Of a stretch of DNA of 64,000 nucleotides, positions 6,189 through 60,688 are shown piece after piece (position 1 is the stretch's first letter; every line of letters starts with the position of its first letter). The stretch lies in the NCBI GenBank assembly GCA_027371855.1, contig DAHXLB010000011.1, positions 7,459 to 71,458 on the forward strand, read 5' to 3'. Source of the stretch: a bacterium (lineage in GTDB: Bacteria > Patescibacteriota > Dojkabacteria > JAKAPS01 > JAJZLI01). The notes under the pieces were generated by a model that did not search any database, was not told where the DNA came from, and saw only the letters and a list, made by a program, of their open reading frames with translations. A program made the position numbers and the translations under genes.

Positions 6189-7150
6189 ACTGTATCTGGA
6201 TCCGCGGATCCTGTAAATAAAAGTATTACTCTATTAAATTTATAACCTTTTTTTAAAGCTTTTTTGAGTCCTGCAACTGTTAAAGCTCCTTCTGGTGATG
6301 TAAAAATATCATTTTTTATAAGTTGTTCTTGTGCTTTTTTAATCTCTTCATTTTGTATTGTCCATCCCCATCCCCTACTTTTTTTTATAACATCAATAAC
6401 TTTCTTTTTTCTTTCAGTTACTCTTGCCACTATAGAATCACATAAAGAATTATCTTCTTTAATAAAATCATTATCATAAAATTTGGATAGAGTATTTATT
6501 TTGGATGTTTGTACTAGATGAATTTGACAATTACTTGAGAGTGACTTAGATATCCCATACAATGTTGTTCCACTTGATACCGGGATAAATATTGAATCAG
6601 CCCTAATGTTTTCTATCTCTTTTGATATAGTTTTAAATCCTTCTATAGCATACTTGTCTTTAGAGCCTCTTAAAAGAGTGATATTTTTCTCTTTAGAATA
6701 TTTAAATGCGTCTGATAAAGGTTTTTTTGACTGGTGAATGCTAATTTTTTTTGAGTTTTTTTCTATATATTTAGCTAGTCTTTTTGTTTTTTCTTTAGAC
6801 AATTTATCTGAGATAAAGATGTCTAAATTAATATCTGCAAGTTTAGAATATGCTATTGCTGATATTGCGGTATTACCAGATGATGGGACTACAATATTCT
6901 CAATCTTTTTAGATTTTAGATAAGATATAAGGAAGGCTAAAGACCTATCTTTGGATGATCCAGTAGGATTTTTATCCTCTCTTTTTGCATATATATATGG
7001 GATTCCTGTTTCTTTTTCTAAAAAACCTAATCTTAAAAGTGGAGTACTTCCTTCATTTTTCGTTACTCTATATTTTTCTAGCACATTATATGAAAATAAT
7101 TCTTCATATTTCCAAATTCCTTGCATCTTGATGCCTTTGATACCTTTCAT
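6185..7150 (-). CDS. PLP-dependent threonine-synthase-like (fold type II) enzyme
   Basis: Contains EGSTPLLRL...YAKREDKNPTGSSKDRSLAFLIS (PLP-lysine motif NPTGS-KDR) and VVPSSGNTAISAIAYS. At 321 aa it is the size of a short ThrC or cysteine-synthase-like protein. Confidence 0.7.
   Translation of the reverse strand: MKGIKGIKMQGIWKYEELFSYNVLEKYRVTKNEGSTPLLRLGFLEKETGIPYIYAKREDKNPTGSSKDRSLAFLISYLKSKKIENIVVPSSGNTAISAIAYSKLADINLDIFISDKLSKEKTKRLAKYIEKNSKKISIHQSKKPLSDAFKYSKEKNITLLRGSKDKYAIEGFKTISKEIENIRADSIFIPVSSGTTLYGISKSLSSNCQIHLVQTSKINTLSKFYDNDFIKEDNSLCDSIVARVTERKKKVIDVIKKSRGWGWTIQNEEIKKAQEQLIKNDIFTSPEGALTVAGLKKALKKGYKFNRVILLFTGSADPDTV
6194..6214. repeat. palindromic GGATCCGCGGATCC at the ThrC-like/ATP-grasp junction
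   Basis: The sequence is ATCTGGATCCGCGGATCCTGT. The 14-nt perfect palindrome lies at 6198-6211 and encodes the tail TGSADPDTV*. Confidence 0.85.
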
Positions 7151-7194
7151 GTATTAATTTTATCATAAATATTACTATTTAGTATCATTATAAG

Positions 7195-7758
7195 CTATAT
7201 CTTTATATTTGTAATTTTGGGAATACCATACTTCTTTTTAAATTCATTCAATATTTCTATTTTATCCTCTCCAAAAGCCTGTAGTTCTAATTTAATATCA
7301 TCAAATGTACTAAATGTTCCTCTTTTAGAGTGAAAATTATCAGCATAGCATAGAATTTCTTCTTCAGTGCTTTCTGGAATAAAATCTTTTAAGGGTAATG
7401 GTAATTTTTGTCTTTTAATATCATTTTTTGATATTCCTACACCTGTATGATGAGATGCAAACCTAGCAATTTTATAATCAACTCCATTCCCTATTAAAAA
7501 TTTCTCTCCTAAAATGCCATGTTTTATATATGGAATCTTTATACTATAATCTTTATTCAGACAAAAATACGCTCCTATATCATGTAACAATGCTCCTGCT
7601 ATTAATAGATCAATATCAATATTCTGAATTTTTTTGTTTTCTATTATCTCTAAACTGAAATCTTTTACTATATTAGAATGTTTTAGAATTATATCACCAG
7701 ACACTCTAGCTATATCTGATGCTACTTTATGCAATTGCAATATTTTTTTGTATGTCAT
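7195..7758 (-). CDS. HD-domain phosphohydrolase
   Basis: Contains GALLHDIGAY (the HD motif), HHTGVG and CYADNFHS. The protein is 187 aa. Confidence 0.65.
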   Translation of the reverse strand: MTYKKILQLHKVASDIARVSGDIILKHSNIVKDFSLEIIENKKIQNIDIDLLIAGALLHDIGAYFCLNKDYSIKIPYIKHGILGEKFLIGNGVDYKIARFASHHTGVGISKNDIKRQKLPLPLKDFIPESTEEEILCYADNFHSKRGTFSTFDDIKLELQAFGEDKIEILNEFKKKYGIPKITNIKI

Positions 7759-7883
7759 TTTGAATAAATATTAAATATTTTATATATATTTTTAAAAATA
7801 ATTATATCATAGTCCTGGTCCTAACTTTGTCCACGATGAGGAGCTTTGTATATTTGTATTGTTCAATTTTTATATAATATATC

Positions 7884-7912
7884 TCTTGTATATTTTTTTA
7901 ATATGATATAAT
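7884..7912 (+). promoter_or_regulatory. sigma70-like promoter candidate for brnTA
   Basis: TTGTAT (7884-7889), a 17-nt spacer, then TATAAT (7907-7912) preceded by TGa (extended -10). It lies 38 nt upstream of the brnT ATG. Such hexamers are easy to find by chance in AT-rich DNA. Confidence 0.4.
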
Positions 7913-7950: not shown

Positions 7951-8271
7951 ATGGATAACATAAAAATATTTAATGGGAATATATTATTTGAGTGGAATGA
8001 AGGTAATATTATAAAAAATGTAAAGAAACATAGTATTACTAATGAGGAAAGTGAATCTATATTTTTTGATATTAATAAAATAATATACAATGATACTCCT
8101 CATTCAAATAATGAAATAAGGTATATAATATTAGGAAAAAGTAAATTTGGGAATATGTTATTTACTGTTTTTACAGAAAGAAATAAAAAAATAAGAATAA
8201 TATCTACAAGAACAGCAAATAAAAAGGAGGTCAATTTTTATGAAGAAGAAAATAGAATTACCAAAATTTAA
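7951..8271 (+). CDS. brnT: BrnT-family (DUF497) ribonuclease toxin
   Basis: FEWNEGNIIKNVKKHSITNEESESIFFD ... IRIISTRTANKKEVNFY matches the DUF497/BrnT pattern (FEWD..K...N..KHG..F.E ... RIISAR.A...E). The toxin comes first, as in brnTA loci. Confidence 0.8.
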   Translation: MDNIKIFNGNILFEWNEGNIIKNVKKHSITNEESESIFFDINKIIYNDTPHSNNEIRYIILGKSKFGNMLFTVFTERNKKIRIISTRTANKKEVNFYEEENRITKI

Positions 8272-8497
8272 AAACGAAACTGAGGAAAGAACTTTTTGGG
8301 AGAAATTTGACCTCTCAGAATACGCAGAAAAAGGAGATTTTAGAAAGGTTGCTTTTCCTGATTTAAAACCCACATCAAAAAGTATATCCATAAGAATACC
8401 TACATATATACTTTTAAAACTAAAAGAAGAAGCTAATAGTAAAGATATCCCTTATCAAAGCTTGATAAAAGAATTTATTGTAAATGGATTAGGATAA
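8240..8497 (+). CDS. brnA: BrnA-type (CopG/RHH-like) antitoxin
   Basis: Contains FKNETEERTFWEKFDLSEY and ISIRIPTYILLKLKEEANSKDIPYQSLIKEFI (a ribbon-helix-helix C-terminus). It overlaps brnT by 32 nt. Confidence 0.75.
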   Translation: MKKKIELPKFKNETEERTFWEKFDLSEYAEKGDFRKVAFPDLKPTSKSISIRIPTYILLKLKEEANSKDIPYQSLIKEFIVNGLG

Positions 8498-8499
8498 GA

Positions 8500-14223: not shown

Positions 14224-15333
14224 TCAGTGTATAATTTTAATTAATTCTTTAACTATTTTTTTTCTTGAATTTATATCTTTAAGTTTTAACATACTATTTT
14301 TTATATTATCCATTTCTCTTGTGTTATTACTTAATTTCTCTATAATTTCTAAGTAATTTTGTTCTGCTATTATACCTATTTTTTCCTTTTTGATATATTT
14401 TATATTCCCCTTTTCTTGGCCGTTTATAAATTCTATAACAATAGGAATTACACCTTTAGATATTAATTCTTGTAAAGTTATGGCTCCTGCTTTTGATATT
14501 GCAAAGTCTGATATTGACATTAATTCATACATATTATCTACAAACCCTAAATTTATAACTTTTATTTGTTTTTTCATTTTATCTATCGATTCTTTTGATT
14601 TTTGGTTTTCTCCATTTACTACAATTATTTGATATCTATTATATAGGTGATTAAATTTTTCAACAATTTTTTTTGCTTTAATTGTCCCAAATCCTCCAGA
14701 AGTTATAAGAATAGTTTTTTTATCTTTAGAAAGATTGTATTTTTTATATATGTTACTTTTATTTATTCGAGCAGAAAATCTTGGATCTATTGGAATAGCA
14801 TATGTTTTAACGTCTGATATTTTATGTCTCAAACATTCCTTCTCTACATATTTATTAGGGGCTATATGTAAGGTTGAATGCCTATCAAACCAGCTTTGAT
14901 AAACATTGAATAAGTCAGTAATTAGTATTACAAATGGTATAATTTTTTTATTCAAAGTTCTTGATATTATATGATTTAATAGAGGGTGAACTGAAATAAC
15001 AATATCAGGGTTATATTCTTCTATAAGTTTAGTTATCTTATTTCTAGTCTGTATTTTTAGTAAAGCAAATACAGGGAAGAATCTTTTTTCACTATCTGTG
15101 GCATAATATCCAGCAGAATAAAGAGAAGGGGCATGTCTTATTAATCCAGAATAAGAATGGATTGTTTTTTTAAGTATTTTTGCTGAATAATTCTCAAAAA
15201 AATCTATAATGATTACATTATATTTATTTGGATATTCAATATCGAAAGTTTCTTTTAAACTTTTTGCAATACTTATATGTCCATTCCCTGTTGTTGTTGA
15301 AGTTAGTATTAGTATAGTTTTTTTCAATTTCAT
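14224..15333 (-). CDS. GT28-family (MGDG-synthase/UgtP/MurG-like) glycosyltransferase
   Basis: The N-terminus ILILTSTTTGNGHISIAKSLKE is the G-x-GH motif of the MGDG-synthase N-domain. It also has KAGAITLQELISKG in a GT28 C-domain. Confidence 0.65.
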   Translation of the reverse strand: MKLKKTILILTSTTTGNGHISIAKSLKETFDIEYPNKYNVIIIDFFENYSAKILKKTIHSYSGLIRHAPSLYSAGYYATDSEKRFFPVFALLKIQTRNKITKLIEEYNPDIVISVHPLLNHIISRTLNKKIIPFVILITDLFNVYQSWFDRHSTLHIAPNKYVEKECLRHKISDVKTYAIPIDPRFSARINKSNIYKKYNLSKDKKTILITSGGFGTIKAKKIVEKFNHLYNRYQIIVVNGENQKSKESIDKMKKQIKVINLGFVDNMYELMSISDFAISKAGAITLQELISKGVIPIVIEFINGQEKGNIKYIKKEKIGIIAEQNYLEIIEKLSNNTREMDNIKNSMLKLKDINSRKKIVKELIKIIH

Positions 15334-17514: not shown

Positions 17515-19038
17515 TTATGTAGATCCAGGCCCGACGGGGCCAGATTCGATGGGTCCTGAACCACCAGATCTAGATCTAAATCTTAAATTATCTTTTATGA
17601 ACTCTATACTTATTCCTTTGATTAAGACAAGTATAGCAAAGTATACAATAATTCCAATCGCTGATAAAGCTAATACATTTAGTGATGATAAGAATATGAA
17701 TACCAATGATGATAATCCCGCCGCAATTAATGGACGTAGAATATATCTTAGTATGCGTATATCAAAATCCTTTTTAAATAATAGATAAGCATATACTCCT
17801 ATGAACAATTCCGTAAATACTGCAGCTGCAGCTGCTCCTGATGCTGCAAATCTTGGTATTAAAATGAAATTTAAGGCTATATTTATTATCATGGATAAAA
17901 ATAAACCTTTAAGTAATGTTTTTTGTTTATCTACAGCTCCAAAAGCGTTACCTATAAGTGCATTTACAAATATTAATCCAGTTGATATAGATAAAAATTG
18001 AAGAGGTAGGACTGAGTTTATATACCTGTGTCCAAATACAAGTAATATAAGGCCACGAGATAAAAACATCATCTCAAGTACAAATATAAATGAAAGGATA
18101 ACCATTAATTTTATAGCATTATTCAAAAGTTCCAAGAATGCTTTTTTATTAGTTTTAAATAATGCAGAGAATGATGGGAATAGCACGCCTATTAGTATTC
18201 CTATTATAGATGTAATAACACCTGTTGTGGAGCGTGCAATTCCATAATACCCAACCTGTATTATTGGTTTAATACTTCCTAGGATAACTTGATCTATTGA
18301 AAAATATATAGTTACAACAATTGATGATAGTCCATAAGGCCATATCTCAAGTAGCATATATTTCCAGAATGCTGTATCAATACGTATACTGAATTTAGAA
18401 AATCTTTGTCTAATTATTTTGATTGCAAGAGTGAACCCTATTAGTGAGGTTATTGCAAATATAACTGTATAAAGAAGAAGACTGTTATAATAGAATAATG
18501 CTATAAAACCAAATATTAAAAGTATAGATTTTTCAAATATTATTGTATATGCTTCATATATCATCTGGTTATGTGATCTAAAAATTCCCCTAACCAAATA
18601 ATTAAATCCAGAGATAATATTATACAAACCTAAAAATAACATTATTAGCTCTATATCATGATATTGTCTTACGAAAAAGGACGTTATAATTATAAGAGAA
18701 AGTATTATTACTCCTATTATTATCTTCAAGAAGACAAGGTTATCTAAGTATTTTTTTGTTAGGGTTAGGTCTCTAGCAACATCTCTTATTAAAACTGTAG
18801 ACATACCAAAATCTACAAAAATTCCAAATATTGCAATAATTGATGTAGCATAGTTGTATATACCGTTATAGGTAGGCCCTAGGTGTCTTGCCAGTACTAT
18901 ATTAAGTATTAAGCTTGCGAAAATAGTAAGGACTTGTGCTGTTAAAAGCCAGAATGTGTTTTTTCTAAGATTTTGTATCATGCCTAGACTCTTTGGATCC
19001 AGATCCTTTGGCCTTAGGTCCCTGGGATCCAGATTCAT
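17515..19038 (-). CDS. Wzx-like polysaccharide/lipid-linked-oligosaccharide flippase (MOP superfamily)
   Basis: About 14 hydrophobic helices with a typical polysaccharide-biosynthesis-protein N-terminus (NTFWLLTAQVLTIFASLILNIVLARHLGP..YG.Y). The probable true start is the ATG at 18981 (MIQNLRK). The upstream 19 codons are the GATC-rich repeat read in another frame. It has a GC-rich C-terminal tail, RSRSGGSGPIESGPVGPGST. Confidence 0.7.
   Translation of the reverse strand: MNLDPRDLRPKDLDPKSLGMIQNLRKNTFWLLTAQVLTIFASLILNIVLARHLGPTYNGIYNYATSIIAIFGIFVDFGMSTVLIRDVARDLTLTKKYLDNLVFLKIIIGVIILSLIIITSFFVRQYHDIELIMLFLGLYNIISGFNYLVRGIFRSHNQMIYEAYTIIFEKSILLIFGFIALFYYNSLLLYTVIFAITSLIGFTLAIKIIRQRFSKFSIRIDTAFWKYMLLEIWPYGLSSIVVTIYFSIDQVILGSIKPIIQVGYYGIARSTTGVITSIIGILIGVLFPSFSALFKTNKKAFLELLNNAIKLMVILSFIFVLEMMFLSRGLILLVFGHRYINSVLPLQFLSISTGLIFVNALIGNAFGAVDKQKTLLKGLFLSMIINIALNFILIPRFAASGAAAAAVFTELFIGVYAYLLFKKDFDIRILRYILRPLIAAGLSSLVFIFLSSLNVLALSAIGIIVYFAILVLIKGISIEFIKDNLRFRSRSGGSGPIESGPVGPGST
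17521..17580. repeat. GATC-rich GC island encoding the flippase C-terminal tail
   Basis: The sequence is AGATCCAGGCCCGACGGGGCCAGATTCGATGGGTCCTGAACCACCAGATCTAGATCT. It includes a GGCCC/GGGCC hairpin and AGATCTAGATCT (17566-17577). It contrasts sharply with the AT-rich flanks. Confidence 0.8.
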
Positions 19039-21140: not shown

Positions 21141-21260
21141 TTATTTAGAACAGTCGCAAGATCTAGAGCCTGACTCTTTATTACATTTTGTATTATTGCA
21201 AGTTTCTTTTTTGCAATTACAATTATCACAATTACATTTGGATTCAGATCCTTTATCCAT
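21141..21260 (-). CDS. 39-aa cysteine-rich (metallothionein-like) peptide (not in the track)
   Basis: My translation is MDKGSESKCNCDNCNCKKETCNNTKCNKESGSRSCDCSK*, with 9 Cys in CxC/CxxC spacing. The stretch is noticeably GC-richer than its flanks. No homology check was possible. Confidence 0.45.
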   Translation of the reverse strand: MDKGSESKCNCDNCNCKKETCNNTKCNKESGSRSCDCSK

Positions 21261-21340: not shown

Positions 21341-21895
21341 TTAATAATCAATACCCCTTTTTGCAAGTTTACCTGAGTTAAATGCATGTTTAATTTCCTT
21401 CATCTCTGTTACAGTATCAGCAAGTTCTATAATTTTAGGATTTACATAATTTCCAGTTAGTATAAGATCTAGATTCTTGTTTTTAATTTTGATTATATCA
21501 ATTACATCTTCTACACTAATGAGTTTTCCATGTACTGCATAATTTATCTCATCAAGTACTACAATATCATTTTTACTATTTTTAACTTCAATTTTAGCTT
21601 TTTCTATTGCCTCTTTTGCAGCATTCACATGATCAATTAGGGGCAGTTTATCATCTATTATTCCAACAAATCCTTTACCTAATGATAGAAGTTCAAAGTT
21701 AGGATTAAGTCTTTTAAAACTTTCTTTTTCTCCATAGAACCAAGATCCTTTTATAAATTGGATCATCACACCATGAAGATTATATCCACAGGCTCTAAGG
21801 AGTATGCCTAATGCAGCAGTAGTCTTTCCTTTTCCCCCTCCAGTATTTACTACTATCAATCCATTCTCTTTTCTTGGACCTAGATCCATTGTCAT
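21341..21895 (-). CDS. cobO: ATP:cob(I)alamin adenosyltransferase (CobA/CobO/BtuR type)
   Basis: Contains GLIVVNTGGGKGKTTAALGILLRA...VMIQFIKG. I place the start at the ATG at 21895 (MTMDLGP...), which overlaps the nrdJ stop as ATGA. The longer track ORF (to 21967) would lie inside nrdJ. Confidence 0.8.
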   Translation of the reverse strand: MTMDLGPRKENGLIVVNTGGGKGKTTAALGILLRACGYNLHGVMIQFIKGSWFYGEKESFKRLNPNFELLSLGKGFVGIIDDKLPLIDHVNAAKEAIEKAKIEVKNSKNDIVVLDEINYAVHGKLISVEDVIDIIKIKNKNLDLILTGNYVNPKIIELADTVTEMKEIKHAFNSGKLAKRGIDY

Positions 21896-24138
21896 ACTGA
21901 ACAGTACGAATACCCACAGTATGCACAAGTTGCACAACCCTCTTTCATCTCCATTTGTTCTCCACATTCAGGGCAATCAATTTTAGTTATTTTTGATAGT
22001 GATTCTTTTTTATGAGGGTCCTGTTTTTTCTCTATTAAGTTTAATACTTGCACTTCTCTTGATCCATCCCTATATACAGTGCATCCTTTACATCCTAGTT
22101 CCCATGCAAGAAGATATCCGGCTATAACATCTTGTTGTGTAGCGTTGTTTGGAAAGTTTATTGTTTTTGATATAGCATTGTCAGTATGTTTTTGAAAAGC
22201 TGCCTGCATTCTTATGTGATCTTCTGCAGATATATCCATTGCTACAACAAATACATCTCTAATGTCTTTTGGAATTTCTTTAATATTTTGTATAGAGCCA
22301 GTCTCTGATATTTTTTCAATCAGTTCCTCAGAATACAGTCCTCTTTCTTTGAGGATATTTTCAAGATGTTTATTAGTGTAGTAAAGATTTTGCCCACCCA
22401 TTACCTGTTTATAATAAGATAATGCAAAATATGGTTCTACTCCAGATGATACATCAAACATCATCGATATTGATCCTGTTGGAGCAACAGTAGTTAAGGC
22501 AGCATTCCTCATTTTCTTCCCACTCCCTTTGTATATTGAAAGATCATAATTCTCGAATACACCTTTCTCTTTTGCAAGCTGTTTTGACATTTCATGTGCC
22601 TCTGTATTTATTATTTTCATCACCTCTTCTGCTGTATCACGACCCTTTTTAGAGTTATACTGTACCCCCATAAGATATAGCATATCTGCAAACCCCATTA
22701 TTCCTAATCCTAATCTTCTATTTTTTCTAAAAACGTTATTTACTCTATCTACATGAAAGTCCGAGATGTCTATTACATTATCAAGTAGTCTTGTAGCACT
22801 TCTTGTAACTTTTTTTAATTTTTCAACATCAATCTTTTTATCATTGGATCCAGATCCATTAGTTACAAATTTTTCAAGGTTAATTGATCCTAGATTACAA
22901 ACATCTCCATCATGTAGAAATTGTTCACCGCAAGGGTTACAAGCCTCTATTCTACCAAGTTTAGGTACAGGGTTTGTTCTATTTACCTCATCAAGAAATA
23001 CAACTCCAGGTTCTCCGTTATTCCATGCTGCAGAAACTATTTCTTGAAATAACTCTCTGGCAGTTATAGAAGTCTCTTTGATATCAGTTACTATGTGGCT
23101 GTTATCTCTTGTAATAGTTCTTGGTTTCATTTTTATACCACCAAATTGGCACATCCATGGTTTTTTAGAATTATTTTTTACTTCTCTCATAAATTCATCT
23201 GTTATTCCAACAGATATGTTAAAATTTCTTATTTCTCCTTCAATTGCCTTACAATGTATGAAATCTAGAATATCTGGATGATCAACTGACATTACTGCCA
23301 TATTTGCTCCATGCCTTCCCTGTTGTTTAATAATACCAAAAGCTTCATTATATACTCTTAAAAAACTTACTGGGCCAGAAGATACACCTTTTGTTCTTAT
23401 TGTTCTTGATCCAGCAGGACGCAATAAATGGAATGGGAATCCTAATCCAGATCCTAGTTGCTGTAGCAAAGCAGCATCCTTTAACGTTTGAAAAATACCT
23501 TCCATGCTATCTTGTGGGTGCAATACTATACAGTTTGCTACAAGAGCAGTATCAGATCCAGCATTAGTAACAGTTCTTCCAGCAGGTGTAAATTCAAAAT
23601 TACTCATTATAGAATAGAAATCTTCTTTTATCTCTTCTATTTCTTTTTTGGAGTTAGCTCCTTTACTTTTTTTATATTTTTTTTCAACGTTAGCTAGTGC
23701 ATCAGCAACCCTTAGAAACATATCTTCTGGTGTCTCAACTATCTTTCCAGTTTTTGCATCTCTTTTAAGATATCTTCCAGCAATAACTCTTAAGGAATTT
23801 TCTGATAAAGGGAGATTTGTTGTAAAACCTTCCATAATCTCCTGTTGTCTTTCTCGAGCCTTATTATGCTCTTCTCTATATAGGATGTATGCTTTTGCAG
23901 CTTTTGCATGATTTTTTGCAATAAGCGCTATCTCTACTATGTCTTGAATATCTTCTACATCAGGGGTTTTTGATTTATATTTTTCTCCCAAAATTTGGAT
24001 TACAATATCGCTAACTTCTCTAGCTTCCTCTCTATCGAAATCTCTAGTTGCTTCTCCTGCCTTAAATACAGCGTTTACAATCTTTTTCTCATCAAAATCC
24101 ACTATAGAGCCGTTACGTTTTTTGATTTTTGTAACCAT
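21892..24138 (-). CDS. nrdJ: class II (adenosylcobalamin-dependent) ribonucleotide reductase with an N-terminal ATP-cone
   Basis: The ATP-cone is VTKIKKRNGSIVDFDEKKIVNAV. The catalytic core includes NPCGEQFL, VCNLGSINL and TVAPTGSIS, and the C-terminal zinc ribbon is CPECGEQMEMKEGCATCAYCGYSYC. The protein is 748 aa. Confidence 0.9.
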   Translation of the reverse strand: MVTKIKKRNGSIVDFDEKKIVNAVFKAGEATRDFDREEAREVSDIVIQILGEKYKSKTPDVEDIQDIVEIALIAKNHAKAAKAYILYREEHNKARERQQEIMEGFTTNLPLSENSLRVIAGRYLKRDAKTGKIVETPEDMFLRVADALANVEKKYKKSKGANSKKEIEEIKEDFYSIMSNFEFTPAGRTVTNAGSDTALVANCIVLHPQDSMEGIFQTLKDAALLQQLGSGLGFPFHLLRPAGSRTIRTKGVSSGPVSFLRVYNEAFGIIKQQGRHGANMAVMSVDHPDILDFIHCKAIEGEIRNFNISVGITDEFMREVKNNSKKPWMCQFGGIKMKPRTITRDNSHIVTDIKETSITARELFQEIVSAAWNNGEPGVVFLDEVNRTNPVPKLGRIEACNPCGEQFLHDGDVCNLGSINLEKFVTNGSGSNDKKIDVEKLKKVTRSATRLLDNVIDISDFHVDRVNNVFRKNRRLGLGIMGFADMLYLMGVQYNSKKGRDTAEEVMKIINTEAHEMSKQLAKEKGVFENYDLSIYKGSGKKMRNAALTTVAPTGSISMMFDVSSGVEPYFALSYYKQVMGGQNLYYTNKHLENILKERGLYSEELIEKISETGSIQNIKEIPKDIRDVFVVAMDISAEDHIRMQAAFQKHTDNAISKTINFPNNATQQDVIAGYLLAWELGCKGCTVYRDGSREVQVLNLIEKKQDPHKKESLSKITKIDCPECGEQMEMKEGCATCAYCGYSYCSV

Positions 24139-24229: not shown

Positions 24230-24478
24230 CTATAGTAATGGATCATCCCCACCTTTGGAAAAGGGATTACAACGCAATATTCTGTATGCACCCTTCAATC
24301 CTCCTTTGATGACGCCATATTTTTCTATAGCCTCATATGTATACTCTGAGCATGATGGATTATATCTACAATATCCCTGAGGCCAGCCTCCTTGAGGATA
24401 TTTTTTAGAGAATATTCCATGATCAGGAGAGAGAGTCTTTTGATATAACCTTATTAGTTTTAACGCGTATTTTTTCAT
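24230..24478 (-). CDS. yidD: membrane protein insertion efficiency factor YidD
   Basis: Matches [11 protein letters not shown]...[44 protein letters not shown]. Confidence 0.9.
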
Positions 24479-26277: not shown

Positions 26278-26315
26278 ACCTTATATATTAACAGTTTTAC
26301 TATAACTTTCAATGC

Positions 26316-26333
26316 TTGGATCTGGATCCTTGG
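26316..26333. repeat. intergenic copy of the dodecamer in reverse orientation
   Basis: TTGGATCTGGATCCTTGG contains GGATCTGGATCC at 26318-26329, the exact reverse complement of GGATCCAGATCC. It lies between cvpA and htrA. Confidence 0.85.
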
Positions 26334-26455
26334 AAAACATATCATAAGATTAATAAATATTTAATGTTATTTTAATAATATACAGCTATAAGTATTCCGG
26401 AATTAATATCATTTAGGTTTATACACTAGATAGATTATTTTAATATTATAAAATT

Positions 26456-27724: not shown

Positions 27725-27755
27725 GATCAAGATCCTAATATAAAGTACAAACAAT

Positions 27756-53474: not shown

Positions 53475-54140
53475 TTATTTGATTTCTTTAACTCCAATTT
53501 TTGGGCAAATATCTTTTAATATACACATATTACATCTAGGTTTTTTAGCTACACATATCTCTCTCCCATGTGCTATTATAAGATCTGAAAAATGTAGGTA
53601 ATTAGATTTTTCAACAATTTTGTTTAAAACTTGTTCTATCTTATCAGCATTCTTACTATCCATTAAATTTTTTCTTATAAGTCCTAATCTTCCTGATAAT
53701 CTTATCATATGTGTATCAACAACAACTCCTGTGTTTTTAGAAAATGCATTCATCAAAACCACATTTGCAGTCTTTCTTCCTATACCAGGCAATTTTATTA
53801 GTGTATCTATATCTTCAGGTATTTCACCTTTGTATTTATCTACAATATAAGTTGCAAGGTTCTTTATATTTTTTGCTTTATTTTTATAGAACCCCGTAGA
53901 ATATATGTCTTTTTGAAGTTCTTCTATATTTACATTCTTAAAATCTAGAGGAGTTTTATATTTCTCAAATAAATCTTTTGTAACAATATTAACCCTTTTA
54001 TCAGTACATTGAGCAGATAAAATTGTAGCTACTAAAAGTTCAAATGGATTTTTAAAATTTAGCGAAATTTTAGCATTAGGATATAAAACATCCAATTTTT
54101 CTATTATTTTCTTAACATATTCTTTTTTGTTTTTATTCAT
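53475..54140 (-). CDS. nth: endonuclease III
   Basis: Contains the HhH-GPD motif LPGIGRKTANVV, VDTH, and the 4Fe-4S cluster loop CVAKKPRCNMCILKDIC. Confidence 0.9.
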   Translation of the reverse strand: MNKNKKEYVKKIIEKLDVLYPNAKISLNFKNPFELLVATILSAQCTDKRVNIVTKDLFEKYKTPLDFKNVNIEELQKDIYSTGFYKNKAKNIKNLATYIVDKYKGEIPEDIDTLIKLPGIGRKTANVVLMNAFSKNTGVVVDTHMIRLSGRLGLIRKNLMDSKNADKIEQVLNKIVEKSNYLHFSDLIIAHGREICVAKKPRCNMCILKDICPKIGVKEIK

Positions 54141-54385
54141 TTTAATACTCTAGATACAATATATATTATTATTGTTAATATTATAGAGGCTAGTATTGAA
54201 AAGGTTAATGGAAAGTAAAAACTAAAATTTCCTTTTTTAAAGACAAAATTCCCAGGAACGCTGTTCCCAGGAACGCTGTTCCCTGGAACACTGTTCCCTG
54301 GAATATGGTATTTTTCAATGAAATAAAGAACTATACCTACTATGGTTATAAACAATCCTATGATTATAAATATTCTACCGTACAT
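54137..54385 (-). CDS. DUF2905-like small membrane protein carrying an in-frame tandem repeat
   Basis: An 82-aa protein with two helices. The ...PGN..FKKGNFSFYFPLTFSILASIILTII pattern resembles DUF2905 (LPGD.....FYFP). The loop reads PGNSVPGNSVPGNSVPGNFV. Confidence 0.5.
   Translation of the reverse strand: MYGRIFIIIGLFITIVGIVLYFIEKYHIPGNSVPGNSVPGNSVPGNFVFKKGNFSFYFPLTFSILASIILTIIIYIVSRVLK
54251..54310. repeat. 15-bp tandem repeat, about 3.5-4 units, inside a CDS
   Basis: The units are CCCAGGAACGCTGTT (54251-54265), CCCAGGAACGCTGTT (54266-54280), CCCTGGAACACTGTT (54281-54295) and a degenerate CCCTGGAATATGGTA (54296-54310). The repeat is GC-richer than its flanks. Confidence 0.9.
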
Positions 54386-55607: not shown

Positions 55608-55675
55608 AATAATATATTAAACATTATCATTCATGATATCAAATTTAAATGATTATGATTAATTATTTTCTTGAT

Positions 55676-56626
55676 TTAGATCCGTGGATCAAGATCCTCT
55701 ATGAAATGCATAGCATCAATTGCGGCTATACAGCCAATACCAGCAGATGATATTGCTTGTTTATATTTAGGATCTGATACATCTCCTGCAGCAAAAACAC
55801 CTTCAATATTTGTTTTTGTAAAATCATGGACTTTTATATATCCATTTGTATCTATGTCTAAAAATTCTTTAAAAATTTCTGTATTTGGGGTATGTCCTAT
55901 TGCTATAAATACACCTTGTACTCTAAGATCAGATTCAGTATTTATTTTATTATTCAAGATCTTTACTCCTTCTACAACACTCTCGCCATAAATATCCTTA
56001 AGTTCAGAGTTAAAAAGTATCTCTATCTTCTCATCTTTAAAAACTCTATCTTGCATTACTTTTGATGCTCTAAATTCATCTCTTCTGTGTACAAGGTATA
56101 TTTTTCTTACAAATTTTGTTAAAAATAAAGCCTCTTCCATGGAACTATCTCCTCCTCCAACTACAACTATATCTTTATCTTTAAAAAATGGTCCGTCACA
56201 AGTAGCACACCCAGAGACTCCCTTGCCCATTAATCTTGTCTCTCCATCAAGGCCTAACCATCTTACAGATGCTCCTGTAGAAATGATTATAGTTTTTGTT
56301 TTAAATTCTTTATCTTCAGTCCAAATAGTAAATGGTTTCTTTGAAAAATCAACTTTTATAACTACGCCCTCTTCAAATCTAACTCCCATATTTTTTGCTT
56401 GTTTTTGCATATTCAACATTAATTCTGGTCCCAATATACCATCCTCAAATCCTGGATAATTTTCAACTAATGATGTTATTGTAAGCTGACCTCCTGGGGT
56501 ACTCCCAGATATCAAAATAGGGTTTAAATCAGATCTAGCTGCATATATGGAGGCAGTTAGTCCTGCAGGCCCAGATCCTAAAATAATAACGTTTTCAATA
56601 TTCATAATTAAGTGTTTTTCTGACAT
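55676..56626 (-). CDS. trxB: thioredoxin-disulfide reductase
   Basis: Contains the FAD motif ILGSGPAGLTASIYAAR, the redox-active CATCDG, the NADPH motif VVGGGDSSMEEA, and GVFAAGDV. Confidence 0.95.
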   Translation of the reverse strand: MSEKHLIMNIENVIILGSGPAGLTASIYAARSDLNPILISGSTPGGQLTITSLVENYPGFEDGILGPELMLNMQKQAKNMGVRFEEGVVIKVDFSKKPFTIWTEDKEFKTKTIIISTGASVRWLGLDGETRLMGKGVSGCATCDGPFFKDKDIVVVGGGDSSMEEALFLTKFVRKIYLVHRRDEFRASKVMQDRVFKDEKIEILFNSELKDIYGESVVEGVKILNNKINTESDLRVQGVFIAIGHTPNTEIFKEFLDIDTNGYIKVHDFTKTNIEGVFAAGDVSDPKYKQAISSAGIGCIAAIDAMHFIEDLDPRI

Positions 56627-56689
56627 ATTTATTCTACCATAATAATCATGTATATCAAAAAAAGTAGTGCTCTTGGACTAATATGTTAG

Positions 56690-56900
56690 TTAATGATACA
56701 TTCATATTTTAATAGTATCTTAATGATAGTGAAAGATATAAAAACTAACAACGCGTTGAAGATAATTATATTGATTAACTAAAAACTAATTTTATCTATA
56801 CAAGACTATGTATATAAAAATGAAGGATATGAAATTACCGAGAATTACAGATATATTAGAAGCAAGAGGGAGCCGGTTTGGGGCTCCCTTCCATTTTCTT
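56690..56900 (+). ncRNA. candidate sRNA/leader module, copy 1 (promoter-like box, ~170 nt, terminator-like hairpin)
   Basis: It starts with TTAATG-17-TAGTAT (56690-56718). Copy 1 shares a block with copy 2 (57029-57228): the first ~45 nt are near-identical, and a conserved core AACTAAAAACTAATTTTATCTATACAA follows. It ends in the hairpin AGGGAGCC/GGCTCCCT (56867-56889) followed by TCCATTTTCTT. Confidence 0.4.
56867..56900 (+). terminator. intrinsic-terminator-like hairpin of copy 1
   Basis: An 8-bp GC-rich stem (56867-56874 with 56882-56889) and a 7-nt loop, followed by a T-rich tract. Confidence 0.45.
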
Positions 56901-57003
56901 ATGATTTCCCCAAAGGTATGGCAGTAAAAACAGAGATATCGTAGTAGAGTCACAAAACAATAAAAAAGTGGTGGAATGGCGTACTAATTGGGGAAGTCAT
57001 AAG
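56898..57003 (+). other. 106-nt element closed by a 16-bp long-range stem
   Basis: CTTATGATTTCCCCAA (56898-56913) pairs with TTGGGGAAGTCATAAG (56988-57003). That is 15 Watson-Crick pairs plus one G-T, readable as G-U on the + strand. A second helix pairs GTATGGC (56916-56922) with GGCGTAC (56978-56984), and the interior is A-rich. Confidence 0.4.
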
Positions 57004-57028
57004 AAACCATGAACTACCAATGCAGTAA

Positions 57029-57228
57029 TTAATGATACATTCATATTTTAATAGTATCTTAATAATAATGAAAGATATAAAAACTAGCTAGTCGTTATCA
57101 AGTAACTAAAAACTAATTTTATCTATACAACTATTATGTATATAAAAATAGAAGATAGAAAATTACGGCGAGAGACAGAGATATATAAAAAGATTTAGGG
57201 AGTCGAATCAGGGCTCTCTTTTATTTCC
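57029..57228 (+). ncRNA. candidate sRNA/leader module, copy 2, directly upstream of the GT39-like gene
   Basis: It has the same architecture as copy 1. The hairpin AGGGAGTC/GGCTCTCT (57197-57219) has the same 7-nt loop length and is followed by TTTTATTT. It ends 55 nt before the ATG at 57283. Confidence 0.4.
57197..57228 (+). terminator. intrinsic-terminator-like hairpin of copy 2
   Basis: An 8-bp stem with two G-T (G-U) pairs, followed by a T-run (TTTTATTT). Confidence 0.45.
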
Positions 57229-57282: not shown

Positions 57283-58806
57283 ATGAATAGATACATTAAA
57301 TTTTTTCCCTTTTTGTTAACATTTTTATTAAGACTCCCCGCATTTTATGAGCCCCATTGGTATGAAGATACAGGTATGTATTCAGCAATAGGTATGGCTC
57401 TAAATCATGGTGCAGTTTTATATAGCACTGTATTTGATAATAAAACCCCTTTTATATATTACCTATATGCTTTATATGAACGTATTCCGCTATCTTTAAT
57501 TTTTGTTTACCAATCCGTTTCTTTGATCCTTGCTTTGCTTACTCAGTATTTTATTTTTAAAATAGCTCAATTAAAGTTTGGTAATAAAGTAGCAGTTATA
57601 TCATCCCTTCTTTTTGCTTTACTTATAGGGAGTGTTTTTCTAGAAGGAACATTGGCTAATGCTGAGAATTATTATATGTTCTTTTCTATATTATCTATAT
57701 ATATAATTCTGAAGAATGTTCCTGATATAAGTTTTTTAAAATTATATATTGCAGGACTTGTCATAGGTCTTGGATTAATGTTTAAGGTGTCAGTAATATT
57801 TGATGCATTCTTTATTATTGTATATTTCTTTTTTATATTTGATTTTAAAAAATATGTTAAATCATCATTTTTCTATACCTTGGGTTTGTTCACTCCATTG
57901 GTAATTTTTCTAGTTTATGAATTTTTCACAAACAATCTACCGAACACAATATATGCAATATTTTTGTATAATTTAGGATATGTCGCAAAGGCAAAACCTT
58001 TATTTGGTTTATCAATAGTTGATTTTCAGACTATACTTCTTTTCCTGATCCTATTCATATTTTTTGTATTTTATAAAAAAAGATGGATTAAAAGATCTAG
58101 ATCCAAAGATGTAACTCTCTTTATATATTTATGGGTTATTATTGATTTATACAGTGTATATTTATCAGGAAGACCTTATTTTCATTATCTTCTTCAAATA
58201 GCATTACCTCTTTGTATTTTACTAGGATACTATATATATAGAATATATAAAGAAAGGTGGTATAAAAAAATACTTATTGTATTTTTAGTTGGTATATCTA
58301 TATATCTTGGAGAACTATATTTCTTTAGAGGAGAATTATCATGGCAAATTTTCCAGCAGTTACAATTTAAATATGACTATTATCCTAATTCTTATGCATA
58401 TATGATAGGTAAAGAAACAAGTTCTCAATATAATTCTATTTTTATCTATAATACTAATGTTATATATGAGAAAACTGAGCAGAACGCAAATATAGTATAC
58501 CAGATTGCAAATAATCTGGATTCACTAAATGTTAAGGGTAAGAGAATATTTATAATGGGTAATTTTCCTTGGGATTACTATATGACAAAATCTATTCCCA
58601 GTGAGAAGTATGTAGTTGATTTTCAAATAATAGGGGAAAAAAGACAGAATACTGTTCTCTCTGAGCTAAATAAGAATAAGCCATATCTTATACTCTATTA
58701 TAACGATAGCTATGGATTTAATAAACTGACAGCCTTTATAAATAAATACTACAAACTAGCAAAAACCTCCAATGGTGCATATTTTTATATAATTAAAAGT
58801 AAATAG
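57283..58806 (+). CDS. GT39/ArnT-like (GT-C fold) polytopic glycosyltransferase
   Basis: A 507-aa protein with ~12 helices in the N-terminal two thirds and a soluble C-terminal domain. The first-loop acidic motif is EPHWYEDTGMY. The layout is typical of PMT/ArnT-family enzymes in reduced genomes. The family call is tentative. Confidence 0.5.
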   Translation: MNRYIKFFPFLLTFLLRLPAFYEPHWYEDTGMYSAIGMALNHGAVLYSTVFDNKTPFIYYLYALYERIPLSLIFVYQSVSLILALLTQYFIFKIAQLKFGNKVAVISSLLFALLIGSVFLEGTLANAENYYMFFSILSIYIILKNVPDISFLKLYIAGLVIGLGLMFKVSVIFDAFFIIVYFFFIFDFKKYVKSSFFYTLGLFTPLVIFLVYEFFTNNLPNTIYAIFLYNLGYVAKAKPLFGLSIVDFQTILLFLILFIFFVFYKKRWIKRSRSKDVTLFIYLWVIIDLYSVYLSGRPYFHYLLQIALPLCILLGYYIYRIYKERWYKKILIVFLVGISIYLGELYFFRGELSWQIFQQLQFKYDYYPNSYAYMIGKETSSQYNSIFIYNTNVIYEKTEQNANIVYQIANNLDSLNVKGKRIFIMGNFPWDYYMTKSIPSEKYVVDFQIIGEKRQNTVLSELNKNKPYLILYYNDSYGFNKLTAFINKYYKLAKTSNGAYFYIIKSK

Positions 58807-58842
58807 TCTAAAATTAAGAAGCCTAGACTCAAGAATCTGGAT

Positions 58843-60384
58843 TCAAGGGATCTGTGCAGTTGTAGAATTTAGTGTTGGGTATGTAGGTGTTTGGAAGTTT
58901 ACAATAGGTAAATTATTATTTTGAATATAATCCATTATCAATTGATGAGCCATAGGTCCTGTTTGGAATGCACCTACTGCATTTTGAGACATAAGTGAAT
59001 CGTTTATATTTCCAGCCCATACACCTACTGAAAGTTGAGGGATAAACATATAATCTGTTATATCTCTAGGTCCATTTGATGTCCCATCCTTAGATCCATA
59101 AGGTCTACCTTGAACTGAGTAGTAATAAGTATTAGATCCATATAATGGTTGCTTTAGAACAGTATCGCCTAGTACTGCATCCATCTCTGCTACAGCGTTA
59201 GCATCTAGTATTCTGTTTTTAGGAGGATTAGTGTTATTGAGTATTGTTTGATTGTTGTATACAATTTTAATAAATGGAGTGGATTGAGCATAGTATCCCC
59301 CATTATCTAATGCATTATATGCACCTACCATTCTAACTAAAGGTATTCCTGCAGCACCAAGTACTAGAGGTAATCCAACATATACTTTCGGATCTAACTG
59401 TATACCTTCTTTTATAAGTGTATTAAATCCATTCTGGTATCCTATTCTTGCAAGCATTTTTATTGCCGGAATATTAATTGACTGATTGATTGCCCTATCT
59501 ATTGAAACCCATCCAACTGTATATCCTTCATAATCTGTTGGACAGTAATTTCCATAACATATAGGAGAATCATTAATCATTGTTTGTGGAGAGTATCCCA
59601 TTTCAAATGCTTTAATGTAAATTAATGGTTTCATAGCAGATCCTTGTTGACGTGGAATATCAGCCATATTAAGGTATGCCCCATTGTTTGGCCCTCCAAT
59701 CATAGCAAGAACATATCCATTAGTTGGGTTGTCTGCTACCATAGCTGCAGAATCAGCTCCTATTGGTACATCATATTGTTGAAAGTCACTTGTAACTATT
59801 TGTTGAGCAAGGGTATTCAAGGCTGGATCTACAGTTGTGTAAACTTGTAATCCACCTAAAAGCAGATATTTTTGATAGTTTTGGTATAGTTTATGGATAA
59901 CATATTCTGTAAAATATGGGGTATGAAGAACACTGAAATATGGAGTATTAGTATTTTGATTTGCCAAAGTAATATCACTCTTGGTTATTGCACCTCCGTT
60001 ATATAAAAACTGCATAAAATCATTTTTTGCTTTCATAGCTAAAGATAAAACATCAGGATTTGATGAGTATGGAGGAATATTTTCAAGATGATACAATATA
60101 GAATCACCTGCATATGCTGAAGGATTGGAAACATATTGATATGCTTTCATCTCTGGTCCGTATATTTTACCAATAACTTCATTATTGTTTGCATATATTG
60201 TAGTTGCAGCTTTTGGTTGAGATAAACTTTCTGACGGATTAAATCCATTAAATGGAGTAAATTGTACTGCAGGAACTGTTGCAGTGTTAAAGAGTGTATA
60301 TACAAAACTTGCAAGCAAAAATATTACTGGTACAACTGCGAATTTAATATAAGTTGATTTTAAAATTTTACCCTTCAATTCCAT
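58843..60384 (-). CDS. penicillin-binding protein (class-A-like transpeptidase) with a truncated or degenerate transglycosylase region
   Basis: It has a TM anchor. The transpeptidase motifs are SxxK in RQQGSAMKPLIYIKAFEMG and SxN in NQSINIPAI. The third motif reads GSKDGTS (KDG instead of KTG). The ED..F..H.G motif of GT51 is not present in the ~130 aa between the anchor and the linker domain. Confidence 0.7.
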   Translation of the reverse strand: MELKGKILKSTYIKFAVVPVIFLLASFVYTLFNTATVPAVQFTPFNGFNPSESLSQPKAATTIYANNNEVIGKIYGPEMKAYQYVSNPSAYAGDSILYHLENIPPYSSNPDVLSLAMKAKNDFMQFLYNGGAITKSDITLANQNTNTPYFSVLHTPYFTEYVIHKLYQNYQKYLLLGGLQVYTTVDPALNTLAQQIVTSDFQQYDVPIGADSAAMVADNPTNGYVLAMIGGPNNGAYLNMADIPRQQGSAMKPLIYIKAFEMGYSPQTMINDSPICYGNYCPTDYEGYTVGWVSIDRAINQSINIPAIKMLARIGYQNGFNTLIKEGIQLDPKVYVGLPLVLGAAGIPLVRMVGAYNALDNGGYYAQSTPFIKIVYNNQTILNNTNPPKNRILDANAVAEMDAVLGDTVLKQPLYGSNTYYYSVQGRPYGSKDGTSNGPRDITDYMFIPQLSVGVWAGNINDSLMSQNAVGAFQTGPMAHQLIMDYIQNNNLPIVNFQTPTYPTLNSTTAQIP

Positions 60385-60388
60385 ATAT

Positions 60389-60688
60389 TTAATTATCTAA
60401 ATCTTGGTCTATATCTAGATCTGAATCTAAATCTACTTTTTCTAGTTCCTTATTTATCAGAGTGATTTTATTCTTTGTATTATTTAAATACTTAACACAT
60501 TCTTTATATAGCTTTGTTCCCTCTTCTATTTTTTTTATTTGATCCTCAATAGTTAATTCATCATTTTCAAGTTCTTGTATTATACTTTCGAATCTTTCAT
60601 ATTTTTTGGAAAAACTGATTCCATCGGATCCAGATCCAGATTCTTCATTATGTGTATTTTGAGTATTACTAGTTTTTTTAGCCATCAT
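60389..60688 (-). CDS. xseB: exodeoxyribonuclease VII small subunit
   Basis: Contains FEKYERFESIIQELENDELTIEDQIKKIEEGTKLYKECVKYL, the XseB helical hairpin. It has acidic low-complexity ends and overlaps xseA by 11 nt. Confidence 0.8.
   Translation of the reverse strand: MMAKKTSNTQNTHNEESGSGSDGISFSKKYERFESIIQELENDELTIEDQIKKIEEGTKLYKECVKYLNNTKNKITLINKELEKVDLDSDLDIDQDLDN

Follow-up and report, generated by a model that had tools for sequence, protein, structure and literature searches.

Genes of the Window and Material for Comparison

The window, that is, the whole 64,000-nt stretch of contig DAHXLB010000011.1 analyzed here, has a G+C content of 29% and carries a dispersed 12-mer, GGATCCAGATCC, together with related short quasi-palindromes that lie both within and between its genes. 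According to Pfam assignments these are housekeeping genes, among them those for NrdJ, HtrA, TrxB, XseA/B, aminoacyl-tRNA synthetases, ThyX, and the penicillin-binding protein PBP, joined by a Wzy/Wzx/glycosyltransferase cluster and by genes for CvpA, Nramp, YidD, and CobA. The nearest named homologs of the window genes belong to Patescibacteria (the candidate phyla radiation, CPR), and the bacterial housekeeping genes and contigs of up to 574 kb identify the host DNA as a Patescibacteria chromosome and not as mitochondrial or plastid DNA.

We refer to the window lineage as W and to stretches of DNA from its relatives by L-numbers. Relatives were found through protein-cluster and encoding-contig look-ups; a genome scan yielded one close relative, and a metagenome scan with NrdJ returned just one distant partial match. 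Syntenic DNA is available from five relatives for the nrdJ region (L001, L007/L008, L011, L015, and L016; window 11.9–34.2 kb) and from three for the trxB-xseB region (L018, L019, and L022; window 46.5–64 kb), and the outgroup loci are L023 and L024, in which the gene order is the same and NrdJ is 70% identical, plus L025. The material covers about 72 kb of this genome and 20–40 kb per relative. W, L001, and the L007-L011-L015 clade are mutually ~85–86% identical, and identities inside that clade are 92–99.8%. An assembly artifact is unlikely, given that the window sequence was recovered at 99.98–100% identity in the independent assemblies L006, L026, L027, and L028. As a separate matter, the metagenome-assembled genome (MAG) GCA_021805885.1 holds L007-type contigs (L008 and L020) plus contig L028, which is 100% identical to the window lineage, and because both types share one bin, this bin seems to mix two co-occurring lineages that are ~85% identical.

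Abundance and Architecture of the Family

The exact 12-mer GGATCCAGATCC occurs four times, at 18995, 22846, and 60626 on the + strand and at 26318 on the − strand. A previous model-made interpretation of the window (hereafter the sequence-only reading) had drawn attention to it and located three of these copies correctly, but the second, given as 22845–22856, really lies at 22846–22857. Against the four copies observed, Markov models of order 1–5 predict 0.004–0.015 on both strands. Sites with no more than one mismatch number 11, whereas dinucleotide-preserving shuffles give 0.09 ± 0.32: to the one-mismatch copies already reported at 19025, 21240, and 26822, which are present as described, can be added four more at 4838, 6192, 27724, and 55686. 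No other 12-mer in the window reaches four copies without being almost wholly A/T, and in a family-wise test a 12-mer with at least five G/C reached that number in 1 of 100 shuffles. The self-complementary pattern RRATCNNGATYY (RRATC-NN-GATYY) has 14 sites against 1.84 expected, its match at 21465 being ordinary conserved coding sequence and no module, and GCCTAGACTC occurs twice against 0.01 expected. A chance origin is thus ruled out by the shuffles, the Markov models of order 1–5, the pattern count, and the family-wise test. The earlier assertion that four exact copies are not due to chance is borne out by this check within the window, and the related units quoted alongside it lie where they had been placed.

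The enrichment is confined to the paired arrangement and does not extend to GATC itself. There are 187 GATC sites (374 over both strands, against 396–437 Markov-expected), GGATCC occurs 20 times against 14–30 expected, AGATCT 52 times against 58–84 (both strands), and AGATCC is likewise near its Markov expectation, so that the earlier label "GATC-rich" was misleading. The architecture of GGATCCAGATCC is that of a quasi-palindrome, GGATC / CA / GATCC, with five of six positions complementary, and its core is 50% GC within a 29% GC genome. Across copies, the consensus appears to be RRATC-YR-GATYY, two inverted 5-mers about a 2-nt center that is usually CTAG, CTGG, or CCAG. In the window, GC-containing 12-nt quasi-palindromes in general are not in excess (72 vs. 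63 ± 7.5), and the signal is therefore family-specific. Two non-GATC members, GGAGCTAACTCC and GTTCCTGGGAAC, have the same 12+3 architecture. In genes the unit comprises 15 nt (12+3) and in spacers 14 nt (12+2), a regularity that escaped the sequence-only reading, as did the quasi-palindromic nature of the core and the existence of the non-GATC members.

The sites in the window are listed below (window coordinates; ORF, open reading frame).

4838–4849, − strand: one-mismatch copy GGATCCAGTTCC near the N-terminus of a CofD-like ORF (3854–4885); peptide GGGTGS
6192–6211, − strand: overlapping units GTATCTGGATCC and GGATCCGCGGATCC in the tail TGSADPDTV* of a ThrC-like ORF (6185–7150), phase 1 (D-P-D)
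17566–17577, − strand: perfect palindrome AGATCTAGATCT (R-S-R-S) in the C-terminal tail of a Wzx-like flippase
18982–19036, − strand: module cluster in a Wzy-like C-terminal tail, directly upstream of the likely Wzx start codon, with an exact copy at 18995–19006 (K-GSGS-K, flanks TTT/TTT), a one-mismatch copy at 19025–19036, and GCCTAGACTC
21162–21173, − strand: GGCTCTAGATCT, GSRS between two Cys, in the C-terminal unit of a Cys-rich ORF (21141–21260)
21240–21254, − strand: 15-nt AAA+GGATCTGAATCC (K-GSES) after codon 2 of the Cys-rich ORF; AAA flanks identical
21995–22009, − strand: decayed 15-nt unit in the NrdJ C-terminal linker, GAATCACTATC in W
22846–22860, − strand: 15-nt in-frame insertion AAT+GGATCTGGATCC in NrdJ (T-N-GSGS-N-D), before AAT; W only
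23650–23664, − strand: second 15-nt insertion in NrdJ, AAA+GGAGCTAACTCC (G-A-N-S-K), before AAA; W only
24383–24397, − strand: W-only 15-nt insertion in a YidD-like ORF (PQGGW), with GAGGC-TG-GCCTC formed across the junction
26313–26337, no strand assigned: W-only 25-nt insertion in the cvpA/htrA divergent spacer, with an exact copy at 26318–26329 and 2-nt flanks TT/TT
26822–26833, + strand: HtrA linker copy GGATCTGGGTCC (S-GSGS-S, flanks TCT/TCT)
27722–27737, no strand assigned: TAGGATCAAGATCCTA, overlapping the HtrA stop codon
54260–54299, − strand: tandem 15-nt units GTTCC-TG-GGAAC + AGC, encoding VPGNS repeats in a DUF2905 ORF (54137–54385)
55678–55697, − strand: AGATCCGTGGATCAAGATCC in the TrxB tail ...EDLDPRI* (phase 1)
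58093–58110, + strand: AGATCTAGATCC (K-RSRS-K, flanks AAA/AAA) in a PMT_2 (GT39-like) protein
58821–58854, no strand assigned: 14-nt-period array CCTAGACTCAAG / AATCTGGATTCAAG / GGATCTG between the convergent PMT_2 and PBP genes
60621–60643, − strand: XseB N-terminal extension E-S-GSGS-D-G, in which the exact copy at 60626–60637 overlaps AGATCCAGATTC

Two of these hosts call for comment. The start at 19038 of the ORF spanning 17515–19038 is probably over-extended, as the relatives' Wzx-like gene begins at the ATG of ATGATACAAAATC (~18977) and overlaps the Wzy stop; with the Wzx-like start probably at ~18977, the MNLDPRDLRPKDLDP reading of the cluster is likely untranslated. The Cys-rich ORF on the − strand (21141–21260) encodes a metallothionein-like peptide of 39 amino acids with 9 Cys, MDKGSESKCNCDNCNCKKETCNNTKCNKESGSRSCDCSK.

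The Copies Are Alike as DNA

When read along the coding strand, the majority of genic copies give GGA TCT GGA TCC, or G-S-G-S, and the peptides attributed to them could be reproduced (NGSGSND, ESGSGSDG, SSGSGSSGPSS, KRSRSKD, TGSADPDTV*, EDLDPRI*, KAKGSGSKES, and RSRSGGSGP, as well as GSES and GSRS of the Cys-rich peptide). Given the codon usage of the window (GGA 0.478, TCT 0.351, TCC 0.073), the probability that a GSGS peptide is encoded by GGA TCT GGA TCC is ~0.006, yet of the four such peptides in the window, three are spelt exactly as the 12-mer and the fourth is one nucleotide off. All four follow GGA TCT GGA/GGG TCC and contain the rare (7%) Ser codon TCC, and the peptide itself is ~12-fold over-represented (4 vs. 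0.32 expected). Codon bias and convergent Gly-Ser coding were rejected on these grounds. Codon phase 0, with the reading G/R/E-S-G/R/E-S, applies to approximately 11 of the 13 genic copies; phase-1 copies give D-P-D in the ThrC-like tail and D-L-D-P in the TrxB tail, and the copies at 26318, 27724, and 58833 are untranslated. Because copies are thus found in another phase or outside any translated sequence, convergent linker coding is ruled out as their source. This suggestion of the sequence-only reading fails for the dispersed copies, in which the GSGS codons are shared, including the rare TCC, and the orthologs are without the segment. Only at the HtrA linker does it survive in part: the outgroup linkers are S/G/N-rich at the same position, as convergence would have it, but they use unrelated codons and are not GGATC-encoded.

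Gain and Loss among Relatives

The copy at 22846 in NrdJ is missing from all five sister genomes and from 16 NrdJ homologs down to 61% identity. Alignment with orthologs, the check advised for NrdJ by the sequence-only reading, therefore resolves this segment into a lineage-specific 15-nt insertion. The second NrdJ insertion is missing from the same 16 homologs, and both are found only in W among six genomes. It consists of a 12-nt palindrome with one mismatch plus a repeated triplet, and its sequence is unlike that of the insert at 22846. Also W-only among the six genomes are the YidD 15-mer, which could alternatively be a diverged tandem duplication, and the 25-nt insertion in the cvpA/htrA spacer. 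In-frame insertions have thus entered unrelated genes, those for NrdJ (twice), YidD, XseB, PMT_2, and the Cys-rich peptide, and all frames are kept.

Blocks of 15 nt are variably present in XseB, PMT_2, the Cys-rich ORF (including its middle), the NrdJ C-terminal linker, the Wzy tail, and the Wzx tail. The XseB block is lacking in L018 and reads TAAATCTAAGTCTGA in L019; that of PMT_2 is lacking in L018 and decayed in L019 and L022; and a block adjoining the Wzx-tail palindrome (17545–17559) is present in W and L001 and not in the L007 clade. The unit in the NrdJ C-terminal linker takes the form GAATCTGGATC or GAATCTAGATCC in the L007 and L011 clades and is absent from L001. The Cys-rich ORF is kept in all sister genomes with variation by 12-, 15-, and 30-nt blocks at three positions: its C-terminus has zero to three TGT+12-mer units, L001 has two further units in a 30-nt (2 × 15) insertion, and the block at 21240 is found, among the nrdJ-region genomes, only in W and in L007, where the unit, GTATCAGAATAC, differs from that of W by paired changes at positions 2 and 11. 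In a multi-genome alignment of ~40 kb, 12 gap blocks are 15 nt long, compared with four of 6 nt, two of 9 nt, and one of 12 nt; an indel spectrum in which 15 nt dominates is very unusual.

Spacers vary in units of ~14 nt. L018 has a 28-nt (2 × 14) insertion, the spacer homologous to 27722–27737 downstream of htrA contains, depending on the sister genome, between one and three units of 14-nt period (L011 has three), and the yidD-nrdJ spacer of L015 and L016 has a 40-nt insertion, GAATCTAGATTC + AA, of approximately three units. The array between PMT_2 and PBP is lacking in L019 and shorter in L018 and L022. At the TrxB tail, L018 carries another palindrome, GGTTTAAACC, with the same center, and the tails of L019 and L022 are unrelated. 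At a junction of another kind, the perfect palindrome GGATCTAGATCC fills the short methyltransferase/mscS-like spacer in L027 (7273–7284) and L018 (2343–2354), and this copy, unlike most others, is conserved across two lineages that are ~85% identical.

The density of the family is 2–2.7 per 10 kb at the nrdJ loci of four sister lineages and 2.2 per 10 kb across the window, with zero matches in the syntenic loci L023 and L024 and in L025. As the next relatives have none, the family is a recent, clade-restricted acquisition or expansion.

Candidate sources of the insertions were sought. There is no repeat family of the size of a miniature inverted-repeat transposable element (MITE) in the 64 kb and no full-length element at the orthologous sites of six genomes, and derivation from a larger MITE or insertion sequence was accordingly rejected. 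Within ±300 nt of the W-only insertions, possible templates amount to chance-level 7-mers only, by which template switching from a local donor was rejected as their source. No gene for a transposase, an integrase, a homing or restriction endonuclease, or a restriction-modification (R-M) methyltransferase (MTase) was found in the window or the flanks obtained.

Flanking Direct Repeats

Identical 3-nt flanks border five of 17 copies against a background of 3.6% (binomial p = 2.5e-4, for a copy list chosen post hoc); written on the + strand of the window, the triplets are TTT/TTT twice, ATT/ATT, TCT/TCT, and AAA/AAA. The intergenic copies all have identical 2-nt flanks (three of three: TT, TA, and AA), for which the background is 8.8%. 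The repeated flank varies by site and is therefore not part of the element. Judged from these patterns, it behaves like a target duplication of 2–3 nt, with most copies lacking the repeat. At the NrdJ site at 22846, both AAT triplets differ from the ancestral AAG/AAA, and the pair is most simply explained as a duplication of one pre-existing AAT.

Changes in Existing Copies

The HtrA linker is an array of GGATCN hexamers in which unit number varies across all sister genomes. Slippage in this array is ongoing, as L015 and L016, which are 99.8% identical, have as their sole in-frame indel in 22 kb one 6-nt hexamer at this position. Length change of a resident repeat in unit steps is seen only here (6 nt) and in the DUF2905 ORF (15 nt), in which VPGNS units number ~4 in W, 2 in L019, and 1 in L018, and the 12+3 architecture is shared with the family while the stem is unrelated to it. 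Hairpins predicted for single units reach −1.6 to −2.8 kcal/mol (z = −0.7 to −1.9) and those for arrays −8 to −10 kcal/mol, which would favor slippage. With single units folding weakly and no Rfam match, a stable hairpin or known RNA was rejected. The window also has no tRNA or other landmark.

The Wzy-tail cluster (18973–19037) aligns with L001 ~15085–15130 better as the reverse complement (18.4) than directly (6.0), and it is probably inverted in L001, a call that the palindromy makes uncertain. The ORF is open to ...DTKS* in all lineages, as a module encodes G-S-G-S in one orientation and R-S-R-S in the other. Older copies are degenerate, as in the NrdJ C-terminal linker of W and in PMT_2 of L019 and L022, which argues against selection on the sequence. 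The stem variants (GGATC/GATCC, GAATC/GATTC, GAGTC/GACTC, and GGGTC/GACCC) are nevertheless all complementary. Template switching at quasi-palindromes is a bacterial mutational mechanism that can restore the complementarity of the arms, and the pairing of the stems could reflect such arm-to-arm correction or selection for palindromy.

Other Features of the Locus

Several observations concern the surroundings of these sites. A BrnT-family ribonuclease toxin ORF at 7951–8271 (Pfam E = 7e-22) is followed by a small ORF at 8240–8497, and the two look like a toxin-antitoxin pair amid housekeeping genes. Near the N-terminus of HtrA, the window alone has a 21-nt insertion (26474–26494), the partial tandem duplication VTPKTVATTPKT, which by its sequence appears to be an ordinary duplication and not a palindromic module. 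A 39-nt intergenic insertion unlike the palindromic family, CCCCATAACTAAATCAATAGGTTTTATGACGATTTGAGG, is confined to L007 (~2831–2870, window ~31375). The trxB/tauE spacer (55608–55675 in the window, 11164–15425 in L018, and 11073–11628 in L019), downstream of trxB, is a hot spot for gene insertion, with a GT2 and GH8 pair in L018, a nucleotidyltransferase toxin-antitoxin-like pair in L019/L020, and neither in the window. On the other side of trxB, the spacer shared with PMT_2 contains at 56687–57184 two diverged tandem copies of ~330 nt (segments of 71, 50, and 35 nt with 78–91% identity). Finally, L019 is without a 275-nt segment (62024–62298) that spans most of a DUF488 ORF (61933–62286), which is present in the window and L018.

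Origin of the Modules

Among the proposals of the sequence-only reading was a tiny insertion tolerated in frame. Lineage-specific 15-nt insertions, identical flank triplets, intergenic copies, and clade restriction all speak for it. The interpretation that we put forward, and which we regard as about evenly balanced between right and wrong, is that GGATCCAGATCC is this lineage's predominant variant of a clade-restricted family of ultra-short quasi-palindromic invasive modules, which are added as a 12-nt core plus a 2- to 3-nt flank repeat. Such modules would be mobile in the sense of being copied from one another, and they would serve no cellular function. By analogy with the GC clusters and the mitochondrial ultra-short element (MUSE) of fungal mitochondria, they would most likely originate through insertion of a short palindromic duplex at a 2- to 3-nt staggered break, which would explain the flank duplication, by an activity presumably encoded elsewhere in the genome, outside the window. 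A genic unit of 12-nt core and 3-nt flank repeat would add five residues, mostly x-G-S-G-S or x-R-S-R-S, whereas a spacer unit would be the core plus 2 nt, or 14 nt. After arrival, local slippage may amplify the units into tandem arrays, occasional inversion may turn them around without closing the frame, and substitution may erode them. Purifying selection would leave in-frame copies in harmless places, namely, surface loops, linkers, N- and C-terminal tails, and gene junctions, and this would explain why the copies are concentrated at such places and, probably, the phase-0 bias. We further suggest, more tentatively and at less than even confidence, that the modules represent an undescribed class of bacterial mobile DNA, in which 12-bp quasi-palindromes are inserted in trans at 2- to 3-nt staggered breaks in a natural form of "pentapeptide scanning."

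A number of points weigh against this interpretation. Neither the window nor the flanks obtained offer an enzyme candidate (transposase, integrase, or homing or restriction endonuclease), and 12 bp is far below the recognition size of known transposases. The copy number is modest, at about one exact copy per 16 kb, and the 3-nt flank repeat is seen in just five of 17 copies from a list chosen post hoc. The phase-0 position of ~11 of 13 genic copies needs strong filtering or indicates selection at the level of the peptide. Some of the 15-nt insertions are different quasi-palindromes (GGAGCTAACTCC, GAGGCTGGCCTC, and GTTCCTGGGAAC), so that de novo creation of palindromes could replace copying from a master, and 12-nt quasi-palindromes overall show no excess (72 vs. 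63 ± 7.5). The evidence base, moreover, is ~72 kb of this genome and 20–40 kb per relative.

The main rival explanation is that we are dealing with a GGATCY hexanucleotide microsatellite, (Gly-Ser)n, shaped by slippage and linker selection, of which the 12-mer would be two hexamers. We judge this unlikely while taking it seriously, as the length of the HtrA array varies by 6 nt even between genomes that are 99.8% identical, the corresponding part of HtrA is S/G/N-rich in outgroups, the XseB copy can be expressed as a TCCAGA duplication, ~11 of 13 genic copies are in phase 0 as G/R/E-S-G/R/E-S, and every copy sits at a tolerant position. Slippage covers the HtrA array, but it leaves unexplained the 15-nt insertions that arose de novo, the copies in spacers, and the repeated flanks. 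The insertions in NrdJ, the Cys-rich ORF, and the spacers lie at sites that are repeat-free in all relatives, and the unit of change there is 15 or 14 nt and not 6. Furthermore, copies occur in noncoding spacers and in phase 1 (DPD, DLD), the rare TCC is identical at all four GSGS sites, the flank triplets are duplicated, and the same proteins of the outgroups are without such sequence.

Selection might instead act on palindromy itself, if the copies were binding sites of dimeric proteins or RNA or DNA hairpins with roles in termination, mRNA processing, or translational coupling at gene junctions. Several observations invite this idea, which we nonetheless consider improbable: ~11 of 17 copies lie in spacers or within ~60 nt of a gene start or stop, the perfect GGATCTAGATCC occupies the same mscS/methyltransferase junction in two lineages ~85% identical (L027 and L018), the TrxB tails of W and L018 have different palindromes about one center, the paired changes at positions 2 and 11 between the Cys-rich-ORF units of L007 and W keep complementarity, and the four stem variants are all complementary. 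Template switching, however, can restore the complementarity of arms mechanically, and single-unit hairpins are weak (−1.6 to −2.8 kcal/mol) and without an Rfam match. Several copies are also deep in ORFs (the NrdJ and PMT_2 loops), most sites vary among close relatives, and the older copies decay.

It is more doubtful still that the modules are a by-product of restriction, nicking, or methylation at GGATC, GANTC, or RGATCY, whether as clustered methylation targets or as palindromes made by a polymerase and a nickase and captured at breaks. Every half-site is RGATCY-like or GANTC-like, and the nickase Nt.AlwI recognizes GGATC. We know of no in vivo precedent for nickase-driven capture of palindromes, and an R-M or nickase-driven origin is speculative. 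In vitro, Bst polymerase is stimulated by nickases, Nt.AlwI among them, to synthesize repeated short palindromes in which the nickase site is included (review PMC10520511), products that the tandem arrays in spacers, with their alternating inverted 5-mers, resemble. On the other hand, GATC, GGATCC, AGATCT, and AGATCC are near Markov expectation with neither avoidance nor enrichment, no MTase, restriction endonuclease, or nickase gene was found in the window or the flanks obtained, and the members GGAGCTAACTCC and GTTCCTGGGAAC are without such sites. Clusters of methylation or restriction targets, as the sequence-only reading had envisaged them, are unsupported for the same reason, GATC and RGATCY being neither enriched nor avoided and the window having no MTase or restriction endonuclease.

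Its further idea of a DNA-uptake signal, comparable with the DNA uptake sequence of Neisseria or the uptake signal sequence of Pasteurellaceae, accounts for the over-representation of one specific 12-mer that is scattered within genes and at their ends, but is highly improbable in view of a density and distribution that do not fit: there is ~1 exact copy per 16 kb (4 in 64 kb), whereas known uptake sequences occur ~1 per kb, copies are gained as insertions with flank repeats and not by substitutions, and the family is quasi-palindromic, with tandem arrays and many coexisting variants.

Relation to Known Elements

If the modules are invasive as proposed, the closest known behavior would appear to be that of yeast mitochondrial GC clusters, with MUSE1 of Podospora also close. 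GC clusters such as GC42 are palindromic, are flanked by AG or ACT direct repeats, and undergo rapid gain and loss (Wu and Hao 2015; PMC4478555). Both they and the modules are short palindromes, G+C-richer than an AT-rich host, dispersed as identical copies that merge into arrays, and subject to presence/absence turnover between relatives. The direct repeats beside GC clusters, which resemble target-site duplications, may have a counterpart in the identical flanks seen here (3 nt at five of 17 copies, 2 nt at three of three spacer copies, in a set chosen post hoc). GC clusters differ in being ~30–50 nt long, with real stems and loops, and organellar, whereas the modules have a 12-nt core, reside in a bacterial chromosome, and are mostly translated; the main text of PMC4478555 gives no regular in-frame protein inserts for GC clusters. 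MUSE1, as described in papers citing the original report, is an 11-bp invasive element of Podospora mtDNA found at recombination junctions (Koll et al. 1996, via PMC7218506 and PMC1864894). On that description it resembles the 12-nt modules in being ultra-short and differs in being organellar. With organellar short invasive palindromes as a whole (GC clusters, MUSE, and PstI palindromes), the modules share a G+C-richer core and optional orthologous sites but not residence in an organelle.

Among bacterial elements, REP (repetitive extragenic palindromic) sequences and BIMEs (bacterial interspersed mosaic elements) are a natural comparison, REPs being extragenic, 20–40 nt long, and mobilized by RAYT transposases. 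HIP1 of cyanobacteria (GCGATCGC) is an octamer with a GATC core that occurs ~1 per kb, also inside genes, and is thought to spread by substitution. Like the modules, these are short over-represented palindromes, but neither HIP1 nor REP is known to give a 15-nt indel class. Coding microsatellites and Gly-Ser linkers are matched by the HtrA (hexamer) and DUF2905 (15-nt) arrays; slippage, however, needs a resident repeat, and the NrdJ, Cys-rich-ORF, and spacer copies are at repeat-free sites with flank duplications. Rickettsia palindromic elements (RPEs) lie in frame in unrelated housekeeping genes of a reduced, AT-rich genome and are ~100–150 bp long (review PMC10969869). They are like the modules in being palindromic and in frame and in adding a peptide segment at tolerated positions, but encode a conserved peptide of tens of residues, whereas the modules are ten-fold shorter and add five. 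The 12-nt core falls short of the ~50–400 bp with terminal inverted repeats of prokaryotic MITEs and RPEs, and because neither this size nor the organellar setting of GC clusters applies, we place the modules outside any named family. Our literature search returned no report of such elements in Patescibacteria.

Significance

The modules account for lineage-specific five-residue inserts, which one could otherwise mistake for adaptations or for errors of assembly. Strain typing can also make use of them as markers of places where indels and small inversions concentrate. Should insertion truly be how they spread, no smaller invasive DNA unit would have been described from a bacterial chromosome, and essential enzymes (NrdJ, XseB, HtrA, and TrxB) of ultra-small CPR genomes would have in them a direct, recurrent source of short loop and tail inserts. 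A mobile class of this kind would account for the dominant 15-nt indel class in essential genes and would be a bacterial counterpart of GC clusters and MUSE. With many close MAGs and clean presence/absence sites, these bacteria would then offer a tractable comparative system for how organellar GC clusters and further short palindromes move.

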